Source of the DNA: Vulcanimicrobiota bacterium
GTDB taxonomy: Bacteria; Vulcanimicrobiota; Vulcanimicrobiia; Vulcanimicrobiales; Vulcanimicrobiaceae
Direction of reading: 5' to 3'
DNA: 64,000 bases
Assembly: GCA_963723515.1 (NCBI GenBank)
Contig: CAVRQT010000002.1
Coordinates: 192,001-256,000, forward strand
Numbering within the stretch: position 1 is the first letter of the stretch; the number at the start of each line of letters is the position of its first letter. The notes under the pieces were generated by a model, which saw nothing but the letters and a program-made list of their open reading frames with translations, had not been told where the DNA came from and did not search any database. The position numbers and the translations under genes were made by a program. Below are positions 13,869 through 52,561 of this stretch, in pieces.

Positions 13869-13873
13869 GAATT

Positions 13874-13946
13874 GCGAATTACACTTCGCGTAATTCGCTG
13901 GCGCTGCGTCCGCCGCCCCCGCCCAAACTATCGCGGGCGGGACCCC
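13874..13946 (+). repeat. Tri-hairpin intergenic element, copy A (middle hairpin reduced)
   Basis: GCGAATTAC-acttcgc-GTAATTCGC, tggcgct linker, CCCGCCC-aaactatcgc-GGGCGGG. Confidence 0.85.
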
Positions 13947-13968
13947 AAAACCGCTTTAGCCGACACAA

Positions 13969-14511
13969 GTGTATCGACAACAGGACGCGAACAAAGTCGC
14001 GTGCCCCGGCAACTGCAGTGGCGGTCGGTCGCAAGCATCTCGCTGCAAATCGTCGCCCTTGGAGTCCTCGCACTTGCGTTCTTTATGCGTGCGCCGCAGG
14101 TCGCCGGTCTATCGATGGAACCGCACGTCATTTCGGGCGAATACGTGCTGATCAACACGATCGCATATCGTATCGGTCATCCTTCGCCGCGGCGACATCG
14201 TCGCGTTCCGGCATGAACGATCCGCGCCTTCGGTCTATCTCAAGCGTGTGATCGGACTACCGGGCGATCGTGTCTCGATCGTTCGAGGCGCAGTTTTCGT
14301 CAATGGCATTCGTTTGCGAGAAGGGTACGTGCGATTCGCTGACCACCGCAGTTTCAAGAGCGTCGTCGTGCCGCCTACAACGCTCTACGTGCTGGGCGAC
14401 AATCGTGCGAACAGCGATGATTCGCGTTTTTGGGGCTTCGTCGATCAGGATCAAGTTATCGGTAAGGCGATTGCCGGGATCTGGCCGCCAGCCCAACTTG
14501 GCGCGCTATGA
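13969..14511 (+). CDS. lepB: Signal peptidase I, copy 2 (apparent frameshift; start approximate)
   Basis: VAGLSMEP, YLKRVIGLPGD, LGDNRANSDDSRFWG. Confidence 0.88.
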
Positions 14512-15320
14512 GCGCGCAGCTCGACCGCCAGATTCAATGGTATCCCGGGCACATGGCCGCCGCGATGCGACGGGTCGATCGGCTCATCGGCCTGATCGAC
14601 ATCATCATCGAGGTTGTCGACGCACGCGTACCGCACAGTGGAATGAGCCCGATGCTCTCCAAGCTCGGCGGACGCCGTCCGCGGCTGATCGTGCTGACCC
14701 GCGAAGACCTTGCGGAGCCGCAAAGCACCGTGAAATGGCTGATGTACTTTGAACGATCGGGACAATCCGCAATTGCCGTCGACACCAAAGAGCGCAAAAG
14801 CGCCAAGCGCATCACGGCGGAACTTCACCGCCTGGCGCTACAAAGGAAAGGCGCACAGCATCGCGCTATCGTCGTCGGCGTGCCCAACTCGGGAAAATCA
14901 ACCGTGATCAACGCGCTGTGCGGGCGAGCCGTCGCGGCAACAGAAAATCGGCCGGGGCGGACGCGGGGCGTTCAGTGGTTTCGCCTCGAACCGTCGCTCG
15001 AGCTCATGGACACGCCTGGTATCCTCGCCCCGAAAATCGAATCGCCACAGTCGCAGTGGATGCTTGCAATAACCGGCGCGATTCCGGCACAACGCTACGA
15101 TCCTGAAGAGGTCGTCGCTCACTTCAGCGCATGGCTGCGCCGGCATCTGCCAAACGCGGAGGATATTCCGGACTTGATTGAGTTTGCGCGCCGGCGCGGA
15201 ATGACGACGCGAAACGGCAGCCTGCATAACGCAGCGCGGTCATACATCAAGGCTTTCAACGACGGCACATTCGGACGCATTTCTTTCGAGCATCCGCCGA
15301 ATGAACGAAAAGCGGCGTAA
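14508..15320 (+). CDS. rbgA: Ribosome biogenesis GTPase RbgA/YlqF
   Basis: IQWYPGHM, EVVDARVP, GVPNSGKS, DTPGIL. Confidence 0.95.
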   Translation: MSAQLDRQIQWYPGHMAAAMRRVDRLIGLIDIIIEVVDARVPHSGMSPMLSKLGGRRPRLIVLTREDLAEPQSTVKWLMYFERSGQSAIAVDTKERKSAKRITAELHRLALQRKGAQHRAIVVGVPNSGKSTVINALCGRAVAATENRPGRTRGVQWFRLEPSLELMDTPGILAPKIESPQSQWMLAITGAIPAQRYDPEEVVAHFSAWLRRHLPNAEDIPDLIEFARRRGMTTRNGSLHNAARSYIKAFNDGTFGRISFEHPPNERKAA

Positions 15321-16002
15321 GGCTCGCAACGCTTACGAACGCGAGCGGCGGCGACTGCATCGCCTGCACCGCTACGAGAAGCGCGCGCAGGGGCGTGGTT
15401 TCGTTCTGGTCGGGGGAATCGATGAGGTCGGCCGTGGGCCGCTCGCCGGCCCGGTAGTCGCGGCATGCGTCGTCGCCGACGGACCGCTCATGCTCAAAGG
15501 GCTCAACGATTCCAAACAAGTGCGTCGCGAACTGCGGTTGGAGTTGGACGCGATCATCAAGCAGCGTTGCGCGGCTTGGTCCGTCGGGGTCGCGAGCGTC
15601 GAGGAAATCAATCGAATCAACATCTATTGGGCAAGCATCCTGGCCATGGAACGCGCGCTGGCGTCGCTGTGCGTGCCGCCGCACTACTTGCTTACCGACG
15701 CGGTGCGCATCCGATCGTATTCGGCTTGCCCGCAGCAGCCGGTCGTTAAAGGCGATGCCAAGTGCGCCACCGTGGCGGCGGCTTCTATCGTGGCAAAAGT
15801 TCACCGAGACGCTTTGCTCGTCGAGCTCGACAGCATCGAGCCGCGTTATGGATTTGCCGAACACAAGGGCTACGCCACGCCGACGCACATTGCGGCGCTC
15901 AGGGAACACGGACCCAGCGTCCATCATCGCACTGCCTTTTGGCGCGTGCGTGATGCGCAGTTGCAGCTCGATCTCTCGGCAATTGCGATCGACGAAGAAT
16001 AA
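15301..16002 (+). CDS. rnhB: Ribonuclease HII
   Basis: GIDEVGRGPLAGPVVA, LNDSK, AAASIVAKV, HKGY. Confidence 0.96.
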   Translation: MNEKRRKARNAYERERRRLHRLHRYEKRAQGRGFVLVGGIDEVGRGPLAGPVVAACVVADGPLMLKGLNDSKQVRRELRLELDAIIKQRCAAWSVGVASVEEINRINIYWASILAMERALASLCVPPHYLLTDAVRIRSYSACPQQPVVKGDAKCATVAAASIVAKVHRDALLVELDSIEPRYGFAEHKGYATPTHIAALREHGPSVHHRTAFWRVRDAQLQLDLSAIAIDEE

Positions 16003-16321
16003 AGGAACGTTCGGCGAGGCGCGCGCCGCGGCGTTCTTGCGGAGCTGCGGCTTCTCGATCGTTGCAACGAACGTGCGTCTGCCCGGCGGCGAGATTGACC
16101 TCATCTGCAAGGATGGCGAGCAGATCGTCTTCATTGAGGTCAAATTTCGCACGACAAATGCTTTCGGAAGCGCGATAACGGGCGTCCATCCGCGTAAGCG
16201 CGCAACGCTGCGGCGGTTGGCGGCGGACTATTTGCAATTCTTTGCACCGACTGCGCGCGTTCGCTTTGATATTGTCGCCATCGACGGCGATCGCATCGCG
16301 CTGCACCGCAACGCTTTCTAG
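15983..16321 (+). CDS. yraN: YraN-family (UPF0102) nuclease
   Basis: GTFGEARAAAFL, GEIDLI, VFIEVKFR, RFDIVAI; TTG start assumed. Confidence 0.92.
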   Translation: MRSTKNKGTFGEARAAAFLRSCGFSIVATNVRLPGGEIDLICKDGEQIVFIEVKFRTTNAFGSAITGVHPRKRATLRRLAADYLQFFAPTARVRFDIVAIDGDRIALHRNAF

Positions 16322-16327
16322 CGCCCT

Positions 16328-17977
16328 TTGGCCATCGAAGCGCGCATAGCCGCAAAATCCACCCCGCAACTGCGACGCGCGGTCAAACCGTGGGGTTCGT
16401 TCGCTTGGGGTTACTCGGATGTCGGTGCCGACATCTTCGTTGGGCTGGGATTGGTGCTCGGCGCGGCGGCCGGCGCCTCAAACATCGCCTTTCTCTTTGC
16501 CGGTCTCGTGTATGTCGCCATCGGCCTCGCCTATACGGAGTTAGCGGCAACCTACCCCGTTGCAGGCGGCGGACAATACTTTGTGCTGCGCGGGCTTGGC
16601 GACATCTTCGGCTTCATCGCCGGTTGGGCGGTACTGCTCGACTTCACGATCGACATCACGCTCTTCGCCTGGAGCTGCGTCGATTATCTCAGCCAGCTGA
16701 TTCCGCAGTTGCTCAGCATTCCGCACCCGGTGACGCATTTTGTCGTTGTCCTGATCTTGATTTGCGGACTTTCGTTGCTCAACGTGATCGGCATCCGTGA
16801 AAGCACCGCGTTCAACGGCATCGTGAGCGGACTGGATGTCGTTAGCGAGACCGCGATCCTCTTCTTCGGCTTCTTCTTTGCATTCAATCCGCAACTGCTG
16901 ATCCACACGATGCAAACCTCCTGGCCGACGACGTTTCAGCTGATGAATGGTGTGTCGCTTGCGATCATCTCTTTCGTCGGACTGGAATCGATCTCGCAAG
17001 CGGCCCAAGAGACGCAGCGGCCGGCCTCAGTCATCCCACGCACCTCGATCAGTTTGATCTTGACGATTCTGATCTTCGCGCTCTCATATTCCAACTTAGC
17101 GCTCGGCATGCAGCCATGGAGCGGACATGGCGCACCGCCGTCGCCGATGATGCACGGCCATCTCGTCCCGTTGTGGGCGTATCTCGGCAACAGTGAAAAC
17201 AACGGAAAGGCCGTTGCGGTGCTGGCGTCCTATGTGCCGTTTTACGGCGCGCTGGCAGCGCTGTACGTACCGCTGCTCGGCTCAATCTTGTTGTTGATTT
17301 CCAGCAATTCGGGCGTCTTCGGCAGTTCGCGAATTGCCTACGCAATGAGCACAACGCGGTTGCTTCCATCGTTTTTCCAGCGGGTGCATGGACGCTTCCG
17401 TACGCCGGCCGTTTCGATCATTGCGTTCACGCTTGTTGCAATCGTCGAATTGATCTTTGCCGCGTTGCCGAGTCTCAACGCCCACGCCGCAGTGATCTAC
17501 CGTAGATTCTTTCACGGCGAGGACGGCATCACGTTCTTAGGCGACCTCTATGCATTCGGCGCGGCAACCAGCTATTCGTTCGTCTTCATCGCCTTGATCG
17601 CGCTGCGCCTCTTCGACCCGTTGAGCCCGCGCAAGTTCAAAATCCCGCTCAATATTCCGCTGCGAGTCCGCGGCGAGCGGGTGGAATTCCCGATTGTCGG
17701 GGTCTTGGGCTTCATTGGAATCGGCTCCATTCTCGTTTTCACGATGATTACGCACGAAATCGGGCGGATTGCGGGACCGGCTTGGTTGATTTGCGGGCTG
17801 ATCGGTTACTTGATCTACCGTCATCGTAAGGGTTTGCCGATTTGGCGCTCTCAGCCGCACAACTGGCGGATCGCGCAGCTCGACATCCTGCGCGCATCAG
17901 GCGAACTTGAACTGATGGACGAATACGTCAGCAACTTGCGAGAAAGCGAACGCCGCCGTGATGAGGAGCGCAGGTGA
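16328..17977 (+). CDS. APC-family permease
   Basis: About 12 TM segments; AYTELAATYPVAGGGQY, SFVGLESISQAAQE, VHGRFRTP. Confidence 0.9.
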   Translation: MAIEARIAAKSTPQLRRAVKPWGSFAWGYSDVGADIFVGLGLVLGAAAGASNIAFLFAGLVYVAIGLAYTELAATYPVAGGGQYFVLRGLGDIFGFIAGWAVLLDFTIDITLFAWSCVDYLSQLIPQLLSIPHPVTHFVVVLILICGLSLLNVIGIRESTAFNGIVSGLDVVSETAILFFGFFFAFNPQLLIHTMQTSWPTTFQLMNGVSLAIISFVGLESISQAAQETQRPASVIPRTSISLILTILIFALSYSNLALGMQPWSGHGAPPSPMMHGHLVPLWAYLGNSENNGKAVAVLASYVPFYGALAALYVPLLGSILLLISSNSGVFGSSRIAYAMSTTRLLPSFFQRVHGRFRTPAVSIIAFTLVAIVELIFAALPSLNAHAAVIYRRFFHGEDGITFLGDLYAFGAATSYSFVFIALIALRLFDPLSPRKFKIPLNIPLRVRGERVEFPIVGVLGFIGIGSILVFTMITHEIGRIAGPAWLICGLIGYLIYRHRKGLPIWRSQPHNWRIAQLDILRASGELELMDEYVSNLRESERRRDEERR

Positions 17978-18165
17978 ATCAAGCCCGCGTCGGCTTTTCT
18001 CTTATCTACATCGCGCTTGGAATTGCAATCATCGTTCGGCTTCTGCACTACGGGCTGCATCGTGAGCTCTTCGGCGGTATCGTGCTCGGTTTGGTGATGA
18101 TCGCCTTTGGCGTTTACCGCGTTCTCTTCTTCATGAGAGCGCGTAAGATGGGCGTGCGACCGTGA
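17974..18165 (+). CDS. Small two-TM membrane protein
   Basis: GTGA overlaps with both neighbouring genes; two hydrophobic helices. Confidence 0.7.
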   Translation: MNQARVGFSLIYIALGIAIIVRLLHYGLHRELFGGIVLGLVMIAFGVYRVLFFMRARKMGVRP

Positions 18166-18782
18166 CAGCACAAATCCATGTAACGGTTGCGGGCATGCTG
18201 AGCGCGTTGCTGATCGCGGCGGCAATTGGCGCGACGCTGTGGTGGATGATGCATCCGGCTCCGTCGTACGTGCAACGATTGGCACAACGCGCGGAACACG
18301 AGCTCGAACACCTGGTCGGCAGTTTGATCATCGTCTTCTCACCGGAGATCGACTCGGCGCATATGATGGCACTGGCGGCGAAGCTCGCGCGCGGCGAAAA
18401 ATCGCATCTTCTGGCGCTCTATGTGATAGAAGTTCCCTTAACGTTGCCGCCCAATGCCGCGATGCCGCATGAGGAGCGCACCGCGATGGACGCGCTTGCA
18501 GCGGCCGAGACGATTGCGAATAAGTACGGCGTCAACTTGCGCACCGAAACCGTTCATACCAGGCAGACCAGTCAAGCTGTGCTTGATATCGCGCGGCAAG
18601 AGCAAGCGCATCTGATCATCTTAGGTTCCTATCGCGAGGGCAAGTACACTGGCGCGCCGCTTGGCCGGACGATCGAGACGATTGCGGCCTACGCGAAGTG
18701 CGACGTTCTGATCGGCGTCGAAGGAAAGCACGGCACGCTGCTGGTGGACGAACAGCAGCCGATGGAAACGGTTCAGCCTTAG
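18162..18782 (+). CDS. Membrane-anchored universal stress protein
   Basis: N-terminal TM segment; LALYVIEVP, AHLIILGS, LGRTIETIAAYAKCDVLI (USP fold). Confidence 0.88.
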   Translation: MTAQIHVTVAGMLSALLIAAAIGATLWWMMHPAPSYVQRLAQRAEHELEHLVGSLIIVFSPEIDSAHMMALAAKLARGEKSHLLALYVIEVPLTLPPNAAMPHEERTAMDALAAAETIANKYGVNLRTETVHTRQTSQAVLDIARQEQAHLIILGSYREGKYTGAPLGRTIETIAAYAKCDVLIGVEGKHGTLLVDEQQPMETVQP

Positions 18783-18797
18783 GAAAGGCGATGACAC

Positions 18798-19844
18798 TTA
18801 CGTTTTCGCTAAATAGCGTTTGCGCAGCTCGTCGAGCACGACCGCCAGCAGAATAACGGCGCCGAGGACGATCTTCTGCGTGTACGACTCGATGCCGAGT
18901 AAGTTCATCACGTTGTAAAGAACGCCGATCAACAGCGCGCCGAAGAACGTCCCGATGATGCTGCCGCGGCCTCCCATCAGGCTGGTGCCGCCGACGACAA
19001 CCGCCGCAATCGATTCAAGCAGCTCGTCGCCGGTCGCGGTATTCGGCGAGCCTGATGCGAAGTTCGCCATCAGCAAGAAACCTGCGATCGCAGCGCACGT
19101 CCCGCTGATAACGTACACAAGCGCCTTGACGCGCGCAACCGGAACGCCGGCTAACCGCGCGGCTTCCTCATTACCACCGATCGCGAAAACGTATCTGCCG
19201 AACCGCGTACGCGTCAGCAGTACCGACGCAACGATGGCAATTACGAGCATCCAAATGACAACAACCGGGATCTTCGACCCCAAAAACAAGCCGTAACCGA
19301 TATGTGAAAAATCACCGGTTTGCAATGCGACCGGGCGACCGTGACAGAGTTTGTACGAAAGGCCGACCGCCATCAGCATCATCGCGAGCGTCGTAATGAA
19401 CGGCGGCAAATTCAAGCGAACGACGGGGATCGCGTTGATGAATCCGGCGCCTGCGCCGACGGCGATGCCGAAGATCAGCGTGGCAACGATCAGCGCAAAA
19501 CCGTGGAAGGGCAGCGCGTTGGCAAAGAGCGCCATCGCGACGCCGGTCAATGAAACGAGCGATCCGACCGAAAGATCGATTCCCGCGGTAATGATGACGA
19601 AGGTTTGACCGAAGGCCAAGATCGCTTCATACGTGATCTGGCGCAAGACGCGGATCAGGTTGCTCGGTTCCAAGAACGAACCGCCGGCGGCCCAGTTTAC
19701 GAGCACGACGATGATTAACAAGCCGATCGACGCAAGAACGATCCGCAACCAATACATCCGCGTCTGTCGAACGCGCGCGTGTTCGGCGGCTTCGGTGAGG
19801 ACCGTCTTGACTTCGGTCTCACGCTGAGCTTGTCGAAGAGCCAT
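18798..19844 (-). CDS. rbsC: Monosaccharide (ribose-type) ABC transporter permease
   Basis: VIITAGIDLSVGS, AIGGNEEAARLAGV, IAAVVVGGTSLMGG. Confidence 0.9.
   Translation of the reverse strand: MALRQAQRETEVKTVLTEAAEHARVRQTRMYWLRIVLASIGLLIIVVLVNWAAGGSFLEPSNLIRVLRQITYEAILAFGQTFVIITAGIDLSVGSLVSLTGVAMALFANALPFHGFALIVATLIFGIAVGAGAGFINAIPVVRLNLPPFITTLAMMLMAVGLSYKLCHGRPVALQTGDFSHIGYGLFLGSKIPVVVIWMLVIAIVASVLLTRTRFGRYVFAIGGNEEAARLAGVPVARVKALVYVISGTCAAIAGFLLMANFASGSPNTATGDELLESIAAVVVGGTSLMGGRGSIIGTFFGALLIGVLYNVMNLLGIESYTQKIVLGAVILLAVVLDELRKRYLAKT
19819..19840 (+). repeat. REP-like family 2 copy inside the rbsC 5' end
   Basis: TCACGCTGAGCTTGTCGAAG matches TCACCCTGAGCTTGTCGAAG at 48471. Confidence 0.75.
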
Positions 19845-21325
19845 TATGCAGCCACGGTCCCCGTCGCGATCGCGATGATCTTCTCCGGCGTCGCCTCTTT
19901 GCGAGAGAACTCTGCTGCGATCCGGCCTTCACGAATGACAAGGATGCGATGCGACATCCCGAGCACTTCGGGCAGCTCGCTCGAGACCATGAGGATCGTG
20001 GCACCTTCGCGCACGAGCGCGACCATTAAGTGGTAGATCTCCGACTTTGAGCCGACGTCGATGCCGCGCGTTGGTTCATCGAACAAGAAAACGCTCGCAT
20101 TTGCAACGAGCCACTTGGCCAACACGACTTTCTGCTGCGTGCCGCCCGAAAGATTGCGCACGAGTTGTTCGTCGTTCGGCGTGCGGATGCGCAGCTCAGC
20201 GATGTACTTGTTGGCAACTGCTGTCTCTTTGCCGCGATCGATTAACAGCTCGCGGTTGACGAATTGGTCGAGATGCGCCAGCGTGATGTTCTCGCGCACG
20301 GTCATCCCCAATATCAATCCTTGATTCTTTCGATCTTCCGTGATGAACGCGACGCCCGCGCGAATGGCATCGCGCGGCGAATGCGCGGTTAGCCGGTGTC
20401 CGCGGATATCAACCTCGCCGCTTTGCGGCAAATCCGCCGCCGCAATGGCGCGCAACGTCTCGGTCCGGCCGGCGCCGACCAAACCCGCTAAACCTAAGAT
20501 TTCGCCTGCTCGCACATCAAAGCTGATGCCGTTGACGGCCGGACGCCGCACTAAGTCGCGAACCGAGAGCACAACGGGCGCATCAGGTTTAATCGGCGGC
20601 AACTCCGGAAAATGCGCTTCGAGCGTGCGGCCGACCATCGCCCGGATCACCGCTTCCGGCGGAAAGTCGGTCATTTTTCGGGTTTCGATCACGCGCCCGT
20701 CGCGCATGACGGTGATGCGATCCGCGATGCGAGGAAGCTCCTCGAGTCGGTGCGAGATGTAGATGATGCCGACGCCGTTGCTGCGCAACTTTTTGATCAG
20801 CGCAAAAAGGCGCTCGATTTCGTTCTCGGTTAGCGTCGCAGTCGGTTCGTCCATGACGATGATGCGTGCATGTTTGCGCAACGCCTTCGCAATCTCGACC
20901 ATCTGCTGCTGAGCGACGGAGAGCTTGCCGACCTCAACATCGAGCGGGATCGTGATGCCGAGATCAGCCAAGACCGCCGACGCCTCTTCTGTGGCCTTCT
21001 TGCGATCGAGAAAGATGCCGCGCTCCGGCTCATCTCCCAAGGTGATGTTTTCGATCGCATCCAGCGCCGGCACGAGATTGAACTCCTGGTAGATCATTCC
21101 GATGCCAAGGCGCTCCGCATCGCGCGGGTTTGCAATGTGGACCTCGTCGCCGTCGATTGAGATGCTGCCCTGATCGGCCGGCTGCGCTCCGGAGAGCACT
21201 TTCATGAGCGTCGATTTGCCCGCCCCATTTTCGCCCACGAGCGCGAGCACCTCACCAGGATAAAGTTGTAACGTCACGCCCTCGAGCGCGCGAACTCCGG
21301 GAAAGCTCTTGCCGATCTCCCGCAT
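19844..21325 (-). CDS. rbsA: Monosaccharide ABC transporter ATP-binding protein
   Basis: GENGAGKST, two NBDs, LSGGTQQKV, DEPTRGIDVG; the true start may lie about 40 nt further upstream. Confidence 0.92.
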   Translation of the reverse strand: MREIGKSFPGVRALEGVTLQLYPGEVLALVGENGAGKSTLMKVLSGAQPADQGSISIDGDEVHIANPRDAERLGIGMIYQEFNLVPALDAIENITLGDEPERGIFLDRKKATEEASAVLADLGITIPLDVEVGKLSVAQQQMVEIAKALRKHARIIVMDEPTATLTENEIERLFALIKKLRSNGVGIIYISHRLEELPRIADRITVMRDGRVIETRKMTDFPPEAVIRAMVGRTLEAHFPELPPIKPDAPVVLSVRDLVRRPAVNGISFDVRAGEILGLAGLVGAGRTETLRAIAAADLPQSGEVDIRGHRLTAHSPRDAIRAGVAFITEDRKNQGLILGMTVRENITLAHLDQFVNRELLIDRGKETAVANKYIAELRIRTPNDEQLVRNLSGGTQQKVVLAKWLVANASVFLFDEPTRGIDVGSKSEIYHLMVALVREGATILMVSSELPEVLGMSHRILVIREGRIAAEFSRKEATPEKIIAIATGTVAA

Positions 21326-21353
21326 CTCGAGAAGCGGGATCGGCGCGCCGCTG

Positions 21354-22310
21354 CTATTTGGCGTTGGCTTTGGTGTAGGTTCCGACGGTGACCGTCACTC
21401 GCGCAGGCGGCTTATGCCCGGCAAAGTAGTCGTGAATCGCCTCGACCGTCCGCGCGCCGATCTGTGCCGGATATTGGATCGCATCGCCGTACATGTCGCC
21501 GGCTTTGATGGCGGCTTGGGCCTCCGGGGTCGCATCGTATCCGATTACGACGAGGCCGCTCGCATTTGCGGCCTTGATCGCAGCGACGGCGCCCAGCGCC
21601 GAGTCATCGTTGATGCCGAAAATTCCCTTCAGATTCTTGTGCGATTGCAACACGTCGCCCACTGTCGAATTGGCTTTTTGACGATCGCCGCCGGCGTCGA
21701 GATCTGCAACGATCGTCACATTGGGACACGCCTGCTTAAGCGCCATCCGAAAGCCTTTGACGCGATCTTGAACGCTAGTGACTTCCGGTTCATCGATGAT
21801 CGCGACGGTGCCGACTTTTCCGGGCAGCGCTTGGCACATCAGCTTTCCTGCCTGCTCGCCGCCCTGCACGTTGTCAGAAGCGATATGCGCGACGACCGTG
21901 CCTTGCTTCGCCGTGCTCGCTATATCCGCGGTAAAGACCGGGATGTTCGCGTTGTTCGCCTCCACGATCGCGCTTCCGATCGCCTGTGAGTCATACGGCG
22001 TCAGGACGATCGCATCGACCTTCTTCGAGATAAAATCTTCAACTTGCGACTGCTGTCGTTCGTTGTCCCGATTCGCGTCGACCACGATCAACTTATAGCC
22101 GTACTTATTGGCGGCCGTCGCCATGCCGTCTTCCATATCTTTGTAGAACTGCGCCTCACGGTTCTGAATGGAAATGCCGATCGTCTTGGTCGCATTTGAC
22201 GGTCCAGTAACATTCGCGCCGGATGACGCTGATGAGGATGATTTGTTCGAACATCCGGCAAGCGCGATTGCGACGATCGCAGCGCCAACGAAAAAACGGG
22301 TGTAGCCCAA
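21354..22310 (-). CDS. Sugar ABC transporter substrate-binding lipoprotein (RbsB-like)
   Basis: GGAGGA RBS then TTG at 22310; lipobox LAGC; IASDNVQGG, GINDDSALG, IGYDA. Confidence 0.9.
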   Translation of the reverse strand: MGYTRFFVGAAIVAIALAGCSNKSSSSASSGANVTGPSNATKTIGISIQNREAQFYKDMEDGMATAANKYGYKLIVVDANRDNERQQSQVEDFISKKVDAIVLTPYDSQAIGSAIVEANNANIPVFTADIASTAKQGTVVAHIASDNVQGGEQAGKLMCQALPGKVGTVAIIDEPEVTSVQDRVKGFRMALKQACPNVTIVADLDAGGDRQKANSTVGDVLQSHKNLKGIFGINDDSALGAVAAIKAANASGLVVIGYDATPEAQAAIKAGDMYGDAIQYPAQIGARTVEAIHDYFAGHKPPARVTVTVGTYTKANAK

Positions 22311-22363
22311 CGTGAAGTCCTCCGCTCTAGCAGAACGCTGACTACGAGCGTGTAGTCCGCTAT

Positions 22364-22624
22364 CCTTTATGTAGCGACGCACTTTGCGCGTCGCTCGGCG
22401 TTTCGCCATCGCTTCCGCCACGATGCGGCGGAAACGCGGCTCCACGCCCCCGCCCAAACTATCGCGGGCGGGTCCCTTTATGTAGCGACGCACTTTGCGC
22501 GTCGCTCGGCGTTTCGCCATCGCTTCCGCCACGATGCGGCGGAAACGCGGCTCCACGCCCCCGCCCAAACTATCGCGGGCGGGTCCCTTTATGTAGCGAC
22601 GCACTTTGCGCGTCGCTCGGCGTT
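22364..22624 (+). repeat. Tri-hairpin element, locus B: exact 111-bp tandem repeat (about 2.35 units)
   Basis: Units start at 22364, 22475 and 22586; hairpins AGCGACGC-actttgc-GCGTCGCT, TTCCGCC-acgatgc-GGCGGAA and CCCGCCC-aaactatcgc-GGGCGGG. Confidence 0.95.
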
Positions 22625-22671
22625 CGGCCTTCGGACTTGCCTGCGCGAAGCCAATGCGCAGATGTAGCGAT

Positions 22672-24207: not shown

Positions 24208-24273
24208 CAGGATTCTCATGCTCCCTTCATAGGCTCAGGATGAGTTCGGCCGCATTGCGAAAATCTGCCAAAC

Positions 24274-28466: not shown

Positions 28467-28918
28467 GGCGAAAGTCCGGTGCTGCCGAATCCGCCTTCTT
28501 GGCGCGCGGTTTTGCTCAGCGACTCAACGATCTCGAACGACGCGCGCGCGACGGGAGCGATAATCATCTGTGCAACGCGATCCCCGCGCCGAATGCGAAA
28601 CGGTTCGCTTCCAAAGTTCGCCACGATCAAGTTGACCGGACCGCGGTAATCGGCATCAATTGTGCCCGGCGTATTGAGCAAGGTGACACCACTGCGCAAT
28701 GCCAGACCACTGCGCGGACGAATTTGCGCTTCGTAACCGGCCGGCAGCGCGATGCAAAAACCGGCTGGAATCAACGCGCGCGCGCCTGGCAATAATGTCA
28801 CTTCTTCGCTAATCGCTGCGCAAAGATCGGCGCCGGCTGCGTGCTCGCTCATGTAGGTGGGCATCGGCAAGCCCTCGCCTTCGGGCAGCCGCCGAATCTG
28901 GATTGCGATCTTGCGCAT
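28463..28918 (-). CDS. dut: dUTP diphosphatase
   Basis: [37 protein letters not shown]. Confidence 0.97.
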
Positions 28919-28927
28919 TAGCGGGGC

Positions 28928-29380
28928 TTACTTTGAAAGCAGCGTTGCGAGCTCTTCTTGAAAACTCTCGACGTCGCGGAAGGAACGATAGACGCTTGCG
29001 AAACGGATGTACGCGACTTTGTCGAGTTTCTTGAGCGCCTCCATGAGCTTCTCACCGATCATCGCGGCCGGCACTTCGCTTTCGCCACGCGAGAAGAGAT
29101 CGCGCTCTAAGTCCGCGGCGACCGCTTCCATTTGATGCTCTGAAACCGGCCGTTTTTCGCAGGCGCGGCGCAGGCCGCTCAGGATCTTTTCGCGATTGAA
29201 TTGCTCGCGACGGCTGTCTTTCTTGACGACGAAGAGGCGCGGTGCTTCCATGCGCTCGTAGGTGGTGAAGCGGTGCTTGCAGCGTGCGTCGAGGCATTCG
29301 CGTCGTCGCCGGACGACCGTCTCGTCGTCGCGGGAATCGACGACGCGGGTCTCGCTCTTACGGCAAGTCGGACAGATCAG
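28928..29380 (-). CDS. nrdR: Transcriptional repressor NrdR (probable CTG start)
   Basis: CPTC..VVDSR..RRRREC..C..RFTTYE zinc ribbon plus ATP cone; AYIRFASVY. Confidence 0.96.
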   Translation of the reverse strand: MICPTCRKSETRVVDSRDDETVVRRRRECLDARCKHRFTTYERMEAPRLFVVKKDSRREQFNREKILSGLRRACEKRPVSEHQMEAVAADLERDLFSRGESEVPAAMIGEKLMEALKKLDKVAYIRFASVYRSFRDVESFQEELATLLSK

Positions 29381-29402
29381 CGGCAGCCCCTTAAATGAAG
29401 AA

Positions 29403-29456
29403 GACCCACATGTTGTGGGTCCTCTCATTATAAGACACAAGTTATAGACGGAGCAA
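29403..29456 (-). promoter_or_regulatory. nrdR promoter with two NrdR boxes
   Basis: Boxes at 29403-29418 and 29435-29450 (32 bp apart) flank minus-strand TATAAT (29432-29427). Confidence 0.7.
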
Positions 29457-29461
29457 ACTGA

Positions 29462-29611
29462 CTATGCCGCGGCTCCGATCTTGAACATCTTCGTGCCGCA
29501 GACCGGGCACTTACCCTCGGTCGCCGGCCGGCCGTTTTTCATCGTGATTTGCACCGCGTCTTTCATTTCACGCTTGGTCTTGCACTTCACGCAGTACGCT
29601 TGAGCTGCCAC
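29462..29611 (-). CDS. Small zinc-ribbon protein (DUF5679-like), 49 aa
   Basis: Not in the track. MAAQAYCVKCKTKREMKDAVQITMKNGRPATEGKCPVCGTKMFKIGAAA; GGAGG RBS. Confidence 0.88.
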   Translation of the reverse strand: MAAQAYCVKCKTKREMKDAVQITMKNGRPATEGKCPVCGTKMFKIGAAA

Positions 29612-29718
29612 GTTCTACCCCCTCCGAAGGCCCCACCGCTTGAATAGGGCCGGAGTATTCAGGGCCGCCCTTCCTTCCCCTTGCTTGGAGAACCCGCACG
29701 CGTGAAGGGAGGCCGAGC

Positions 29719-30592
29719 GTGGAGCCGCCGTTCGTTGCCTGGTCCGAGGTCTGTGCTCACCGAGGGATCCGCTCGGCCGGAATTCCGGAGACGGCCGCAG
29801 GCCTCTACGTCTGGGGATCGCTCCAGGGCCTCGAACGGCCGTGCGTCGCGATCGTCGGGACCCGGGCAGCCTCGCGAGCGGGTTATCTGCTCACGCGGAA
29901 GGTTGCCGCCGACCTTGCCGGAGCCGGCATTTGCGTCATTTCGGGGCTCGCGCTCGGCATCGACACGGCGGCCCACGAAGGCGCGCTCGAACGCAGCGCT
30001 CCCACGATCGGCATCCTCGGCGGGGGCCATGCCAATTTCTTTCCGTCGCGCAATCTGGCGCTGGCGCGACGCCATCGTTGCGGCGGGCGGAGCGGTATGC
30101 TCGCCGTACGAACCCGCGCGCCCCGCGATGCCTCATCAATTCTTGGAGCGCAATGCCATTGTGGCCGGGCTGGCGGACGCGGTCGTCGTCGTCGAAGCGC
30201 CATCGCGCAGCGGCGCGTTGAACACGGCCGCCTGGGCCGCTGGACGCATTCCGGTCCTGGTCTTTCCGGGTGACGTCGATCGCCGCAACGTTGCCGGATG
30301 TCTCGCATTGATTCGTGACGGAGCCACGCTCGTGCGCGATGCCGCCGACATTCTTGCGGAGCTTCGCGTGGATGCCGCACCACCACCACAACATGAACGC
30401 ACGATGCCGTTCAAACCGAATGATGCGCTTCAAACCAGCATCTTAGAGATGCTTGAATCGGAAGCGCAAAGCCAGGATCAACTGATCGAGGATCTCGACT
30501 CCGACGCGCCGTCGGTGCTCTCGGCGCTTACGCAGCTCGAGCTCGCGGGTGCAATCGAGCGCCGCGAGGCCGGCGTCTTCGCCCGGCGTTAA
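29719..30592 (+). CDS. dprA: DNA-processing protein DprA (apparent frameshift near 30065)
   Basis: VAIVGTR, ISGLALGIDTAAHEGAL, FLERNAIVAGL, VVEAPSRSGALNTA; C-terminal winged helix. Confidence 0.93.
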
Positions 30593-30626
30593 AGAACCGC
30601 GCACCGCTTCGGCGAAGACGGCGGCG

Positions 30627-32305
30627 ATGCCGAACGCAACGCATACGGCGCCCCTGCCCGAGGGCGCCCTGCAACAAGTCGCGGACGCTTTACGCAATGC
30701 GATCGAGCAAGAATTTCCAGCCGCGGATGCGCCTCTCGATTTTGAGCCGCCGCGACGTCCCGAATTCGGTGATTACGCGACAAACATCGCCTTTGCGCTC
30801 GCGCGCACGGCGCGGCGGGCGCCGCAAGCGGTTGCCTCCGCGTTGCTCGATGCGCGTCGATCGAAACGCTTTGGAGTCTGTTGTCAGCAGCATCGACGCT
30901 GTCGGAGGTTTCATCAACATCCGCCTGGCGCCGGCGTGCTGGCAAACGAACCTTGCGGTCATTCTGCGTGAAGGAACCGGTTTCGGAGATGCACCTTCGA
31001 ACGGCACGCGCGTTTCGCTCGAGTTCGGCAGTGCGAATCCAACGGGGCCGCTCGTCGTCGTTCAGGGACGCACGCTGAGCATCGGGCAGACACTTGCCAA
31101 TGCCATGCGCGCCCGCGGCTACGACGTCACGACGGAATGGATCATCAACGATGCCGGCGCACAGATCGATGCCCTCGGACGCTCGCTCTATGCGCGCTAC
31201 CGGCAACTCAGCGAGCCGGATTATCCATTTCCGGCTGCGGGATATCCGGGCGACTACCTCAAGCCGATCGCGCAGCGGATCTTCGAGCGCGATGGAGATC
31301 GCTGGAACGCAGCGCCGGAAGCCGAGTGGTTGCCGTATTTCCGTATCGCCGGCCGCGATGCGATCGTTGCGGAACAGCAAGCCGTTGCAATGCGGTTTCG
31401 AGTGCATTTCGATCGCTGGCAGAGCGAACTCGAACTCCACGAAAGCGGCCGCGTCGTCAAGGACCTTCAACGCTTGACCGATCGCGGACTGACGTACATG
31501 TCCGATGGCGCTCTCTATTTTCGCGCCACCCGCTTCGGCGACGATAAAGACCGCGTGCTCTTGCGCTCCGATGGTCGTCCAACGTACTACGCGCCTGATG
31601 TCGCCTACCACTACGAGAAGCTGCAGCGCGCCGATCGCGTCATCGACATCCTTGGGCCGGACCATCACGGTTATATCGGACGTCTAAAAGGCATTGCCGA
31701 TGCGCTCGGTTATCCCGGCGCACTCGAGGTGATCATCGCGCAGCAGATTACGCTGCTAAGCGGCGCCCAGAGCGTTTCGGTGAGCAAGCGCGCCGGCGCG
31801 ATCATCACGCTGGACGATATTCTTGACGATGTCGGCGTCGACGCGGCGCGCTTCTTTTTCATCATGCTGGCGCCTGAGTCGCCGCTCAAATTCGATCTCG
31901 CGCTCGCCAAAGAGCAGAGCGAAAATAATCCGGTCTACTACGTGCAGTACGGGCATGCGCGCATTTCGTCGGTGTTCAAGAATGCGGACGCCTCAGACAT
32001 TCAAGCGGCGTCCGACTTCACCAAACCTGAAGCGCCTCATCGAGCCCTGCGAACTGGCGTTAATTCGGCGGCTTTCAAGCCTGCCCCGAACGATCCAAAA
32101 CGTTGTCGATCAATTTGCGCCGCATCGTTTGACGCAATACGCGCGTGACGTCGCGGCGGACTTTCATCAATTTTATACGGAATGCCGCATCTTGGTTGAG
32201 GAGCCGGAACTGCGCTTGGCACGTTTGGCGCTCTGCATCGCCGCACGCACCGTGTTGGCGCGCGTGCTTCAGCTAATGGACGTCACCGCCCCGGAATCAA
32301 TGTAG
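30627..32305 (+). CDS. argS: Arginine--tRNA ligase (two apparent frameshifts)
   Basis: FGDYATN, LEFGSANPTGPL, DDKDRVL, LGPDHHGY, SKRAG, NPVYYVQYGHAR, APESM. Confidence 0.95.
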
Positions 32306-33521
32306 CCTTTAAGTGCTGCACGCTAATTAACGAGACTGTCACCCTGAGCTTGATCGCCGCTTCGAAGGCTAAGGATGACAACTCTTGCGACTGAGCTTTC
32401 GCGTATGCTTTCTTCGAAAGCCGGCGCGGCTCGGGACGCAGATCGAGCGGCTCAACGGGATGCCCTGTCAGCCACGGCGCGACGAAATAGCGCCAGAGAA
32501 TCTTAATGAGCGCGGCTGCGGGAATGCCCAAAATCAGTCCCGCAAACCCGAAGAGCTCACCGCCGGCGAACACCGCGAACATGACGCCGATCGGTGAGAC
32601 GCCCACCGACGTACCCATGATCTTTGGAACGAGAACGTTGTCGCTGATGCGCGCCACAACGAAGAGGATCAACTGCACCCAAAGGATCATCCAACCGCCT
32701 TGCGGAGCCGCAACGACAGCGCCGATCAGGTGGGCGGCGATCATCCCGACGATCGGAATCGCATAAGCGATCGCGCTTATCACACCGAGAATGAGCGCGA
32801 ATTTGAAGCCCACGATCGCAAGCAACACCGCAATCACGATACCGGTAATCGCGCTCACGATTATTTGTCCGGCGATGAAACTGCCGAACATGTGCGTCAC
32901 TTCATTGGAAAGCGACCGCGCAGTGGCGCGCCTTGACGTTGGGAAAAGCGCCACGAAGCCTTCCAAAATTTGCGTTCGCTGCAGCAAGAAGAAACAAGAG
33001 AGAATCAGCGCTGAAATCGCGATGAAGATCGCAGTAGCGGCACCGAGTAAGACGCTGCCCAGGGACGAAACGGAAGACGTTACGAGCGCCGAAACTTTAG
33101 CGCTAACGAGCTGCTGAAGGTTCAGAACCCCAGCAGGCAGATTCGCGTGCGCAAAACGTTGCCGCAGCATCGTCTCCCCGCCGAGCATCCAGCCTTGCGT
33201 CGACTTCAGGTATGCCGGCGCGTTTTGCACGAGCGCCTGACCTTGCTCGATCGTGGCGGGCAAGACGATCAACGCACCGATTGCCATTACGAGCAAAAGC
33301 ACGATGTAAACAAATGCGATCGCGAGTCCGCGCTTAACGCCCCGTGATTCTAAGTGGGTGACAATCGGCTGCGCTCCAAACGCGATGAAGGCAGCCACGA
33401 CGAAGATCGTGATCGTGCGCGGGATGTGCGATGCAAGCCAGAGCGCAAAAATCGCCGCGACGATACCGGCCGCGGTCAGGGCGATGCGGCGCATCGTCTG
33501 CGGGCTTACGGCGTTCGGCAT
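32283..33521 (-). CDS. AI-2E-family transporter (3' end uncertain)
   Basis: Multi-TM; FIAGQ, IPIVG, DNVLVPKIMGTSVGVSP, GGELFGFAGLILGIP. Confidence 0.88.
   Translation of the reverse strand: MPNAVSPQTMRRIALTAAGIVAAIFALWLASHIPRTITIFVVAAFIAFGAQPIVTHLESRGVKRGLAIAFVYIVLLLVMAIGALIVLPATIEQGQALVQNAPAYLKSTQGWMLGGETMLRQRFAHANLPAGVLNLQQLVSAKVSALVTSSVSSLGSVLLGAATAIFIAISALILSCFFLLQRTQILEGFVALFPTSRRATARSLSNEVTHMFGSFIAGQIIVSAITGIVIAVLLAIVGFKFALILGVISAIAYAIPIVGMIAAHLIGAVVAAPQGGWMILWVQLILFVVARISDNVLVPKIMGTSVGVSPIGVMFAVFAGGELFGFAGLILGIPAAALIKILWRYFVAPWLTGHPVEPLDLRPEPRRLSKKAYAKAQSQELSSLAFEAAIKLRVTVSLISVQHLKATLIPGR
32337..32380 (+). repeat. REP-like family 2 copy (degenerate)
   Basis: TGTCACCCTGAGCTTG...AAGGATGACA between the convergent argS and AI-2E gene ends. 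Confidence 0.65.
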
Positions 33522-33580
33522 AAGCATCGTCTCTGCGAGATACTGCCGTGCGGCCGGAAAGTTCCGACGCCATTTGGTCT

Positions 33581-33683
33581 GACATCGCACGATGCGCGAT
33601 GTCTGGCGCTCCGGCTCCCTTTTGCCACGATGCGGCAAAAAGGGCCTACGCGCCCCCGCCCAAACTGTCGCGGGCGGGCCCCC
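33581..33683 (+). repeat. Tri-hairpin element, copy C
   Basis: GACATCGC-acgatgc-GCGATGTC, tggcgctcc linker, TTTTGCC-acgatgc-GGCAAAA, CCCGCCC-aaactgtcgc-GGGCGGG. Confidence 0.9.
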
Positions 33684-33684
33684 A

Positions 33685-34254
33685 TCATATTCGGCGCGAT
33701 CCCGGGTCGCTCAGCGGCACACCGGCTTTACACTGTGGACATGCGTCGGCTTCATATGAGTCCAACGGGAGATTCAGCAATGCAAACGTTTGCACGCCGA
33801 AGTCGACCGGCGCTCGCTGCACGATCGCTCCAACGCCGACAACTTGCGCACCACGATCGCGTCCTAGCTGCACAACTTCGCGTACCGATCGTCCCGTCGT
33901 AATGACGTCCTCCACGACGAGCGCGCGATCTTGCGAAGTCAGCGCAAAATCCCGACGCAGCGCCGGCCTTCCCTCTTCTTTCTCGACGAAAATCGCCTTC
34001 GTTCCGAGCACGCGCGCGACTTCGTAGCCCAGCAAAATGCCGCCGACGGCAGCGCTGAGCACCACCGTTGGATCGCAGTCTTCAAAATGCCGGGCGATTG
34101 CGTCCGCCAGCGGCGCGAGCAACTTCGGATCTTCTAAGATGCGGAACTTTTGCACGAAACGGTCGCTGTGCCGTCCTGAACTCAACAAGAAGTGGCCGCT
34201 TTGCAAAGCGCCGCGCCCTTGCAGCTCTTCGAAGAGATCCGTAACGGCGCTCAT
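33685..34254 (-). CDS. pyrE: Orotate phosphoribosyltransferase
   Basis: [11 protein letters not shown] and [15 protein letters not shown] motif; lies in the pyr operon. Confidence 0.95.
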
Positions 34255-34970
34255 GCCACTTCGACGCCTTGCATCTCATCCAGAATCGCGCGCGCCGCGG
34301 CGCGCGGATCATCGGACTCGGTGATCGGCCGGCCGACAACGAGATAATCAGCACCGGCCGATACCGCTTGCGCGGGCGTCGTGACCCGCTTTTGGTCGCC
34401 GTGTACGGTACCAAGGGGACGAATCGCGGGCGTCAACGTCAGGAAATCTTGCCCGAAAAACTGCTTGATGTCGGCAACTTCTTGCGCGCTGCAGACGATG
34501 CCGCTGCATCCGGCGTCACGGGCGAGGGCCGCGAGCCGAATCGCGTTCTCTCCCGGACCGCCCGAGAGGCCGAGTTCGCGCAAATCTTCGTTTCCAATGC
34601 TCGTGAGAATCGTGACGGCAAAAAGATAAGGCACCGTCACTCCTAATTCGCTCGCGCGCGCGTCCGCGGCCTCAACGGCCGCCGCCATCATTTCGTTTCC
34701 GCCGAGCGCATGCACCGTGATGATGTGGGCTCCAGGACGTACGAGGGCTCGCACACCGGCGGCGACGGTATGCGGAATGTCGTGCAGTTTTGCGTCCGCA
34801 AAGTAGCGTACGTCGCGTTGCTCGATGTAGTCGAGAAGCGGTCCGCCGTAGCCGTAGAACGCTTCGAGGCCAACTTTGAAAATGACGTCGAGTTCGTAGA
34901 GCTCATCGATCAACGACCGCGCTCGCTCGAATGTATCGACGTCCAGCGCGACGATCAGCGATGCACTCAA
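34251..34970 (-). CDS. pyrF: Orotidine-5'-phosphate decarboxylase
   Basis: [32 protein letters not shown]. Confidence 0.96.
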
Positions 34971-35920
34971 CCCTCGTCTCCTTCGTATTGATGCGCGCTC
35001 GAGAAACCGATGTTCGCTTTGCCGATGATCTCCTTGAGCGAGCTTAGGTTGCGTTGCTGCAAATAGCCGCGCAGCCCTTCGACGATGCGTAGTGGCGCAC
35101 GCGGATCAGTAAAATTGGCGGTGCCGATGCAGACCGCCGTAGCGCCCGCCAAGAAGAACTCCAGCGCATCGTTTGTCGTTTCGATCCCGCCTTGTCCGAC
35201 GATCGGAATGTGCACCGCACGCGCGACTTCATACACGGCCAGCACCGCGATTGGGCGGATCGCGGCCCCGGAGAGGCCGCCTGCGACGTTGCCGAGCCGT
35301 GGCCGCCACGCATCGACGTCGATCGACATCGCGCGCACCGTGTTGATCACGGCAAGGGCATCTGCGCCGGCTTCTTGCGCCTCTAGCGCGATCGCCGCAA
35401 TGTCGGTGACGTTTGGCGACAGCTTGACGATCAGCGGCTTATCGGTGACGCTTCGCCCAAGCGCAACGACTTTTTTTGTCAGTCGCGGATCGCAGGCGAA
35501 GGTCTCGCCTTCGGATGCGACGTTCGGACATGAGATGTTGACCTCGATCGCGGCGATTTCTTTACGCCGCGCCAATCGCTCGGTGATGTAACCGTAATCG
35601 TCGACCGAAAAGCCGGCAACACTGCCGATGATCGCGCACGGACGGTCGGCGAATTTGCGAACCTCGTGCTCGAGGTACCAATCAATGCCCGGATTCTGCA
35701 GTCCGATCGCGTTGAGGAATCCCGAGGGCGTCGGCATCAGACGCGGCGTCGCATTTCCGAGCCGAGGCCAGCGCGTGACGCTCTTGAGCACGATGCCGCC
35801 GACCTTGGAAAGATCGACGAACGGCGCGTACTCAGCTCCTGAACCGTAACAGCCGCTCGCCATCAAGGTCGGAAGCGGCAATTGCAACTTGCCGAGCGAG
35901 ACGGAGAGGTCGATCACCAT
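34967..35920 (-). CDS. pyrD: Dihydroorotate dehydrogenase, family 1B catalytic subunit
   Basis: [34 protein letters not shown]. Confidence 0.95.
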
Positions 35921-36748
35921 CGCAACTCATGCGCCCAGAAGACCGGGCCTTCTTTGCAGATTCGCGCGTATACGGGATCGCTTCTCACGCCGTCGGTGGA
36001 AAGCATCGGAAAGCGCGGCGCTTGATCGCTGCCGCGCTCGATCGGGATGACGCAGCCCCAGCATGCGCCCACGCCACAGGCAAATGTTTCCTCCAATGAA
36101 AGTTGGGCGCGCGTTTTCATTTGCGCCGCAACTTTGCCGACGGCATGCAGCATCGGCGACGGTCCGCAGGCCAAAATCAAATCCGGCACATCATCGGTTT
36201 GCGCGAGCAAATCCGTCACGAATCCGCCGTGGCCGTAGGAACCGTCATCGGTGGCGCAATGAACGGTGCAGCCGGCTTGCGCAAATTTTTCTGCATCCAC
36301 GAGCAGCGCGCTCGTTCTCGCGCCATAGTAGAGCCGAACCCGCACGCCGTTCTGGATCAAGCGCGCGCGCCGCGAGCAGCACCGACGCGATGCCGACGCC
36401 GCCCGCGACGATGGCCACGTTTTTCATCCCACGCTCCAGATCGAAGCCGTTGCCTAGGGGCCCAAATAGATCGAGCGTTTCGCCCGGCGCAACATCGGCA
36501 AGTTCGCGGGTGCGCGGACCACAAACCAGCACCATGAAACTCGCACGCTCGCCTTCCGCTTCATAGACGCCAAGCGCGACGGATGCACGTTCTCCCGACG
36601 GCGGAATCATCATAACGAAATGTCCCGGACGCGTCACAGCGACAAGTTGCGGGGCGTGTAAACCGATGACGACGACGCCGGGAGCGAGTTCGGTGCGGTC
36701 GAGCACCGTGGTTGTATGCACCGCCGCGCTCGATTGGACCAAGGGCAT
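35914..36748 (-). CDS. pyrK: Dihydroorotate dehydrogenase electron-transfer subunit (apparent frameshift near 36365)
   Basis: GPLGNGF, VAGGVG, ATDDGS, ACGP, ACGVGACWGC...RICKEGPVF. Confidence 0.92.
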
Positions 36749-36816
36749 CGGGGCGGAAGCTTCTCGGCAACGATTAGGCAACCATGCGCCAAGAAGATAT
36801 GCTAAATGCGACGGTC

Positions 36817-36924
36817 GGGGGCCCATCCGCGAAGTTTGGATGGGGGCGCGAAGTTCGTTTCTGTCGCATCGTGACAGAAACGAAACGGAGCGCCAAGCGT
36901 CAGGCGAAGTCTGACGCTATAAAG
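36817..36924 (-). repeat. Tri-hairpin element, copy D (reverse orientation)
   Basis: Minus strand: AGCGTCAG-acttcgc-CTGACGCT, tggcgctcc linker, TTCGTTTCTGTC-acgatgc-GACAGAAACGAA, CCCATCC-aaacttcgc-GGATGGG. Confidence 0.9.
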
Positions 36925-37039: not shown

Positions 37040-37180
37040 ATGGCAGGTCTGATGGTCTTTAAATCGTTAGCCGACGCGCTAAGAGCGGGCTACCAAGTCT
37101 ACGACCGCACTGCGGACGGATATCTCGTTCGTACACGAACTGCAGCTGGATGGGCGATAGCTCTGGTTTCCTGCAAGTGA
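37040..37180 (+). CDS. Monocistronic 46-aa small protein
   Basis: Not in the track. MAGLMVFKSLADALRAGYQVYDRTADGYLVRTRTAAGWAIALVSCK; purine-rich RBS upstream and a terminator downstream. Confidence 0.8.
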   Translation: MAGLMVFKSLADALRAGYQVYDRTADGYLVRTRTAAGWAIALVSCK

Positions 37181-52509: not shown

Positions 52510-52561
52510 GTCACACTTCGACGCTTCGTCACTGCTCAGCGCAGGCTTGCTCAGTGTGACA
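52510..52561. repeat. REP-like family 2 composite hairpin
   Basis: GTCACAC-TTCGAC...GCTCA-GTGTGAC, same termini as the copy at 47185. Confidence 0.7.

Follow-up and report, generated by a model that had tools for sequence, protein, structure and literature searches.

A three-hairpin element dispersed at gene boundaries in Vulcanimicrobiaceae genomes: a probably mobile repeat resembling REP and SRM sequences

Introduction

REP and SRM sequences are the best-studied small hairpin repeats of bacteria, and for each of them a single-strand nuclease is known, as far as the cited reports describe them (PMC6006769, PMC11893778). Here, we have analyzed an intergenic element with three abutting hairpins that was noticed, in a preliminary description made from sequence alone, at four loci (A to D) of a 64,000-nucleotide stretch of DNA from a Vulcanimicrobiota bacterium (assembly GCA_963723515.1, contig CAVRQT010000002.1, positions 192,001 to 256,000). 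This whole stretch is referred to as the window and corresponds to C2:192001-256000 of a 2.11-Mb genome (88% complete, labeled G000). All four loci, with their stems and loops, could be confirmed in the sequence. The element is ~105 bases long and gene-free, and the family of copies to which it belongs is present in at least 34 genera, is still expanding in some genomes and shows neither a REP nor an SRM partner, which points to a further single-stranded DNA (ssDNA)-processing activity; the element would be an exact substrate for fishing out this activity. In addition, it alters the leader regions of genes that are essential (those for ribosomal proteins, tuf, rpoD and infC), in some cases with 4-6 bases left between its end and the start codon, and routine screens would class it as an RNA motif by covariation, although its loops resemble DNA mini-hairpins.

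Comparison with described repeats and mobile elements

REP, BIME and REPIN repeats, as characterized in PMC6006769, PMC8266576 and PMC3733652, share several features with the element: they are intergenic, strand-specific imperfect hairpins with conserved mismatches, they form tandem clusters, they often abut stop codons and their occurrence is patchy between relatives. On the other hand, the REPs of these reports are 20-40 bases long, carry a GT[AG]G or CGTC tag, are enriched behind stop codons and are associated with a RAYT Y1 gene, whereas the element has ~105 bases with three abutting hairpins, is enriched before starts and lacks such a tag (the sequence flanking its folded strand is not conserved past GGGG, and copy B's GTAG is not family-wide); no Y1 gene adjoins it, and Y1 genes are rare in the family. 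The NTS/SRM repeats that accompany Ssn (PMC11893778, Chenal et al. 2025) are also similar, in that their hairpins have GC-closed G..A loops and one strand is active. SRMs and the element co-occur in G000, where SRMs insert into the element. However, the GTCA tag reported for SRMs is absent from the element consensus, the element is three times longer, and the true SRMs of G000 form a separate family. Moreover, the SRMs described flank a small GIY-YIG gene, whereas the element never flanked an Ssn gene in the loci tested.

Some other systems resemble the element in part. Like the IS200/IS605 insertion sequences as described in PMC6006769, it has subterminal hairpins and neither terminal inverted repeats nor a target duplication. 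In contrast with them, it has no conserved target tetra- or pentanucleotide at its left end and its hairpin feet show no guide motif; copies with tnpA or tnpB were not found. A TTYAA-like tail a few bases past a hairpin is common to the right end of IS200/IS605 and the element. [quoted passage not shown] MIRUs of mycobacteria (PMC12548453) are likewise small mobile units found at start codons inside operons, but those of that report carry an open reading frame (ORF) coupled to the next gene, which the element does not. A MIRU-type ORF was rejected on the grounds that ORFs span 31 of 77 sense copies and 7 of 19 antisense copies, with a -4 overlap in only 4. Streptomyces telomere palindromes and the priming hairpins of phage G4 and ssiA (PMC5449611, PMC13037366) are packed ssDNA hairpins with GNA loops and sheared G·A closure; these reports deal with single origin or end structures with known primases, the element is a dispersed internal repeat, and the likeness is structural only.

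As the preliminary description had it, no Rfam family was matched: the window gave 0 matches at gathering score, and 15 loci searched at E up to 1 gave two weak matches, both off the element. A literature search, which did not extend to most subscription journals, returned no description of the element family. The element works like the REP/RAYT and SRM/Ssn repeats, yet it shows neither the tag nor the gene association of either family, and it does not correspond to a MITE, a MIRU or an Rfam family. It is best read as a REP/SRM-like non-autonomous element outside both families.

Fold of the element and covariation of its stems

The structured strand is the complement of the strand first read. 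In 19 of 19 copies this strand was the more stable one with both RNA and DNA parameters, and it was the lower-folding strand in each of 156 copies, the 19 called antisense among them. The preliminary description had hinted that this opposite strand, reading GCGAAGT, might matter, and it is indeed the one that folds. Beginning sharply at its 5' end, it reads GGGG-N, hairpin a (7-8 bp), immediately hairpin b, 1-3 bases, hairpin c (~10 bp) and finally the tail NTTYAA. Hairpin b consists of a 5-bp base, a 3x3 GNA/GNA internal loop and a long upper stem. The three hairpins originally proposed were retained, and the (t/c)ggcg and gcc stretches, formerly taken as linkers, pair with each other as the 5-bp base of the middle hairpin (5 pairs, 100% of cells paired). 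The common layout holds at B, C and D but not at copy A, which has no upper hairpin 2.

Folding z-scores of the folded strand ranged from -3.7 to -7.8, and 0 of 200 shuffles were equally stable. The stem cells of 16 copies comprised 452 Watson-Crick pairs, 65 G·T, 1 A·C and 8 other combinations on this strand; after excluding three invariant pairs, G·T exceeded A·C by 17 to 1 in these 16 copies. A G·T pair adjoins the hairpin c loop in 95 of 96 copies, and such G·T pairs next to the loops mean that only one strand folds fully. The 5' side of the internal loop reads GNA in 155 of 156 copies, although the search pattern fixed only the G.

Covariation indicated conservation of the structure, in agreement with the first proposal. 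Among the 16 copies of the genome itself, 98.3% of cells were paired, compared with 37-48% in slid-alignment controls, and 15 of 33 pairs had changed on both sides, which was matched by 0 of 500 shuffles. Alignments of the family gave 31 of 39 covarying pairs in 77 distinct copies and 30 of 39 in 96 copies (0 of 500 shuffles each); for these two, the alignment had been fitted to the model, and relatedness is not taken into account by the shuffles. It should be noted that four genomes flagged as unpublished (G022, G045, G112 and G329) supply a few rows to alignments A2 and A3 and to the range counts given below, and that no claim depends solely on them. The stems are not fully exchanged between copies, as had been thought: mean identity between copies of one genome is 79%, with values of 71-87% among copies, and C and D are 71% identical.

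The loops are of special interest for the nature of the folded molecule. Among 149 distinct copies, the hairpin c loop was GNA in 69, ANC in 44, ANG in 21, ANA in 5, GNNA in 5 and other in 5, and the four-base G..A loops of hairpin a (n=27) comprised 24 GNYA and 3 GNRA. In DNA, ANC and ANA triloops may be closed by sheared pairs. In PMC13037366, GNA alone among 64 triloops tested in DNA gave an extra-stable mini-hairpin, and PMC5449611 describes GNA-looped palindromes as marking the single-stranded Streptomyces telomere. Because GNA-type loops form DNA mini-hairpins, we infer from the sequences that the fold is probably used as ssDNA.

Copy number and taxonomic range

The genome contains ~20 copies. 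A profile built from seven copies gave 19 matches below E 1e-15, and covariance models (CM) gave 24 matches at E up to 0.01 (150 of 1928 candidates scored) and 18 above 80 bits. These 18 correspond to 16 distinct sites, given that B was counted twice and that the end of C4 duplicates the start of C3, and the shortened copy A is a 17th. The duplicated stretch (G000:C4:25896-32881), which is 97% identical to C3:1-6988 and includes one element copy, is probably haplotype or assembly redundancy. A scaffold descriptor matched the genome 18 times, compared with 0-1 times per genome in ten order-4 Markov simulations; a chance origin of the likeness between the four sites is excluded. The scans of the genome and its relatives that the preliminary description had proposed revealed many further copies of a real dispersed family, whereas its expectation that identity searches would largely miss this family proved too pessimistic: with window sequence as the query, BLASTN recovers copies of the sister genome that are 78-86% identical.

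The taxonomic family concerned, Vulcanimicrobiaceae, is one of soil bacteria. A strict pattern for the 5' half was found in at least 119 of 348 genomes of the taxonomic family, a minimum count that takes in a sister subfamily, and in 34 of 78 genera, with one match of the reversed-pattern control. Model matches were present in 34 of 100 family genomes (34 candidates scored per genome), and a broader model matched 30 of 61 family genomes but 0 of 79 genomes from 20 other families of the phylum. A scan of GTDB genomes, with a pattern that allowed only a short middle part, gave at least 80 records, mostly titled Eremiobacterota or its genera among the matches listed. One record titled Myxococcota matched the pattern but not the model and was taken as chance; four records with other non-Eremiobacterota titles matched the model, their assignment being that of unverified record titles. 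The highest numbers noted were 25 matches in G316 and 31 in G318. Copy C had no BLASTN match in phage or plasmid collections, and in IMG/VR one pattern gave 0 stretches and a looser pattern gave 3, which do not extend into an element.

Position of the element relative to genes

Gene boundaries were taken from simple codon-model calls made for this analysis, and 156 copies collapsed to 91 sites. Between co-directional genes, the folded strand was the mRNA strand at 38 sites and the opposite strand at 11 (p 1.4e-4), site D being placed among the 11 through a miscall in which a short divergent ORF was missed. This bias contradicts the previous statement that orientation is independent of transcription. 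Of 64 sites with the tail toward a sense gene, 46 end no more than 30 bases from the called start; of 25 with the tail toward the end of an opposite-strand gene, 13 are at -2 to +4 bases from the stop. The 3' tail abuts a purine-rich, ribosome-binding-like run, a start codon, or the stop or U-tract of an opposite-strand gene, and bases 8-12 past hairpin c are 67-88% purine. Upstream of the left end there is a weak A/T enrichment, with AA within 5 bases in 41% and at 15-29% further out. With regard to the replication strand, ~13 copies were leading and 6 lagging when judged by hand from GC skew, numbers that are too small and confounded with gene direction.

Sites recurring across genera include rplR-rpsE, rplP-rpmC, dnaG-rpoD, infC and lepB, and most junctions of the ribosomal-protein, tuf or rpoD type that are filled elsewhere are empty in G000. 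The 121 neighbor genes scanned were housekeeping or unassigned, with no transposase or mobile nuclease among them, and the only nucleases among a further 96 neighbor proteins were HNH and a control GIY-YIG. In two loci of genus g40 (L060 and L070), a copy lies between two nitrogenase-like oxidoreductase genes, the second of which has a protochlorophyllide-reductase domain.

Gain, loss and inversion of copies

Orthologous sites were found filled, empty, tandem and inverted, and the element is probably mobile, as had been claimed. The sister genome G001 has no element at site A, which holds a full copy in G093, nor upstream of the B gene, where synteny breaks. Conversely, four of five G001 sites are without a full copy in G000 and one (rimP) is common to both. 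Site D was also recovered in a metagenome contig of a relative: its flanks are 89% identical, whereas the copy is 73% identical to D and 87% identical to a G001 copy from another site, which implies replacement or repeated insertion. In the phoU/3HCDH gap, copies were found in opposite orientations.

A series of loci came from genus g80, at a site between a gene for 96 residues and an HNH gene. Of 30 loci, 20 were readable and 10 were dropped for want of a located HNH start; in the 20, the element was sense in 4 and antisense in 8, two of the latter being tandem, and the remaining 8 had no full copy, several of them holding remnants. Two of the four sense loci retain the terminal 15-16 bases of the antisense form, as an in-place inversion would leave. 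The tree of this site, with 10 of 17 inner branches open, does not order the inversion events. Both in g80 and in g50, the element is inserted in the coding tail of pdxT, just before a purine-rich run. As a separate observation, a conserved motif, TAGGGAAG ... GCRTAA, ends at the stop codon of pdxT in L490, L493, L495, L496, L502 and L503; judging by its sequence, it may be an alternative-sigma promoter for the next gene, and the element insertions lie just upstream of it.

Tandem copies with a period of 109-120 occurred in fifteen locus entries. The ends GGGG-N-CCC and NTTYAA are not complementary, so that there are no terminal inverted repeats. No target duplication was seen in 159 single copies, with 28 repeated 3-mers vs 27.75 by permutation, 15 vs 10.6 4-mers (p 0.095) and 6 vs 3.4 5-mers (p 0.125), a test whose power is reduced by old insertions.

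Possible mechanism and alternative explanations

Starting from the family, the strand-specific fold, the position and the gain, loss and inversion described above, we consider it reasonably probable that the element is non-autonomous, that its folded ssDNA is recognized by a trans-acting nuclease and that A-rich junctions at the borders of genes receive its copies, those insertions that leave starts unharmed being kept by selection. The substrate would be ssDNA; if it is, as seems probable, the non-template strand where DNA is transcribed, the sense bias would be explained. A nuclease that is specific for structure and encoded elsewhere may nick the folded strand, and nick-primed copying with strand transfer would then place new copies at A-rich junctions with no duplication of the target; tandems, inversions and deletions could come from these same nicks. 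Selection would then retain mainly insertions that leave the ribosome-binding site or start of the next gene intact.

Several results weigh against this scenario. The mobilizing gene was not found (Y1, Ssn, Y2, DUF559 and reverse transcriptase (RT) were searched), although most genomes in these searches are incomplete and such absences are not proof. Y1 genes occurred in 11 of 301 family genomes, in none of six high-copy genomes and not in the 88%-complete G000, and a strong element match was present in 0 of 21 Y1 loci, 0 of 38 GIY-YIG loci and 0 of 11 further GIY-YIG loci. Together with the missing GTAG-type tag, the Y1 figures also argue against the link to REP/RAYT drawn in the preliminary description, whose remark that the window contains no cognate nuclease agrees with the window genes scanned. 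DUF559 was found in 0 of 6 genomes, RT in 1 of 16 and Y2 in 0 of 16, the last count being uninformative since its control gave no signal either. No copy enclosing a gene and no autonomous parent with the same ends could be identified among the neighbors scanned, and no near-identical pair of filled and empty sites was found, so the junction bases are not fixed. In addition, the sense bias and the G·U pairs of the mRNA strand fit an RNA role equally well, the recurrence of sites across genera would also be expected from old insertions with many losses, and our own gene-calling model is simple, as the miscall at site D illustrates.

Of 18 tyrosine-recombinase loci, one (L522) has an element copy ~900 bases away. 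The only nuclease gene that repeatedly adjoins the element is that for HNH, with the element upstream of it in g80 and g50 and in its operon in g64. As a mobilizer it is a weak candidate only, being single-copy in 89 of 91 g80 genomes, and the G000 HNH copy has no element. HNH matches were present in 16 of 16 panel genomes, six of which have no element matches.

The folded strand being the mRNA strand at 38 of 49 co-directional sites, with 46 of 64 sense sites close to the start, is also what would be seen if the element were a portable RNA element whose fold protects or processes the message before the start codon and which spread by recombination or gene conversion. G·U wobbles are normal in RNA, and the element lies in ribosomal-protein, tuf and rpoD junctions of several genera. 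We nevertheless regard this explanation as unlikely: the loops are triloops and GNYA rather than GNRA or UUCG, the strand asymmetry is kept in 19 of 19 antisense copies, genus g80 shows either orientation or nothing at the same site, and most such junctions are empty in G000. It seems quite improbable that the element is a composite offshoot of Ssn/SRM, cut and spread in trans by the small GIY-YIG nuclease, the repeats of which share GC-GNA-GC loop modules. A 103-codon GIY-YIG frame with SRM arrays on its flanks is indeed present in G000, as are 199 SRM core matches; the loop of hairpin a has been entered by SRMs, and strand-specific cutting of folded ssDNA by SsnA is described in PMC11893778. 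However, the element lacks the GTCA tag and is carried by no tested Ssn locus, the GIY-YIG matches inspected in five element-bearing genomes are of UvrC length or of an unflanked housekeeping type, and G316, in spite of its 25 element matches, has no GIY-YIG match at E 1e-10 or better.

One further explanation is a relic, for the most part neutral, of a mobile element now extinct, in which template switching within hairpins mimics selection while deletion, slippage and inversion make the differences. It would account for the missing mobilizer and the common deletion remnants, and slippage can make tandems. Template switching should, however, erase mismatches, yet the G·T of hairpin c and the GNA internal loop persist almost without exception, and the lineage bursts of 25-31 matches and the re-occupation of site D point to ongoing spread; we think this explanation very improbable. 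Returning to the scenario of a trans-acting nuclease, a broader form of it may be put forward tentatively, as possible rather than likely: the element and the two sister subfamilies described below might be lineage-wide mobile ssDNA cassettes of DNA mini-hairpins that enter the non-template strand at junctions with translation starts and owe their movement to an enzyme not belonging to Y1, Ssn, DUF559 or RT; this enzyme could be a core nuclease of the host such as the single-copy HNH protein, the operon of which has been invaded in three genera.

The four copies of the window

Copy A (13869..13946, minus strand; CM 59 bits) consists of hairpin a, the base of hairpin b with its upper stem deleted, hairpin c and an A/T tail that directly adjoins the lepB stop codon (13866-13868); its folded strand is antisense to the lepB-lepB operon. 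Locus B (22364-22624) holds 2.4 tandem copies with a unit of 111 bp and 100% matches. It comprises the full element B1 (22366..22476, minus strand; CM 124.5 bits), whose 3' tail points toward the start of a sugar-binding protein gene (22313, minus strand), an identical tandem duplicate B2 (22477..22587, minus strand; period 111), and a partial third unit B3 (22588..22624, minus strand) with hairpin c and part of the hairpin b base, located upstream of a divergent YifB-like Mg-chelatase gene. Copy C (33574..33683, minus strand; CM 119.5 bits) is a full element that begins 1 base past the stop codon of a phosphoribosyltransferase gene (33685-33687) and is in sense with this gene and with an AI-2E transporter gene. 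Copy D (36817..36924, plus strand; CM 123.2 bits), also a full element, has the pyr genes of the minus strand on one side and a short divergent ORF, with its start at 37040, on the other. By eye, the latter (37040 onward, plus strand) is a putative ORF of fewer than 100 codons; it has a G-rich run resembling a ribosome-binding site, and it faces copy D and diverges from the pyr genes. On the side of the pyr genes, a pyrK-like gene for the electron-transfer subunit of dihydroorotate dehydrogenase (35914-36826, minus strand) is split over two frames, with a frameshift or assembly error near its middle.

Sister subfamilies and SRM repeats in the same genomes

Hairpin a, the GGCG...GCGCC base together with the GNA/GNA loop, and the TTYAA tail recur in two sister subfamilies. 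The first (L097-L113) has hairpin a, a short hairpin b, an A-rich spacer and a separate GGGGTCCCC hairpin, and several of its copies lie between tRNA genes. The second is without hairpin c and ends directly on start codons. At least 8 copies of it, including those at rpmH, gyrB and rplW, occur in G000 (C2:12698, 570109, 596836, 785311, ~631500 and ~636900; C3:287066 and 760926). The rplD-rplW gap contains this second subfamily in G000 and the three-hairpin form in G070.

The 103-codon Ssn-like GIY-YIG frame of G000 (L001:1200-2010) has SRM arrays in inverted orientation on its flanks. Of the CTGAGC..CGAAG core matches of the SRM type in the genome, 5 are in the window, at 19824, 45637, 47154 and 48476 on the plus strand and at 52539 on the minus strand. 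Six places of G000 carry an SRM in the hairpin a loop, one of them being an assembly duplicate. An Ssn-like gene with an in-frame TAG was also observed in G318, the genome with 31 element matches (L543, G318:C1:1259827-1260045).

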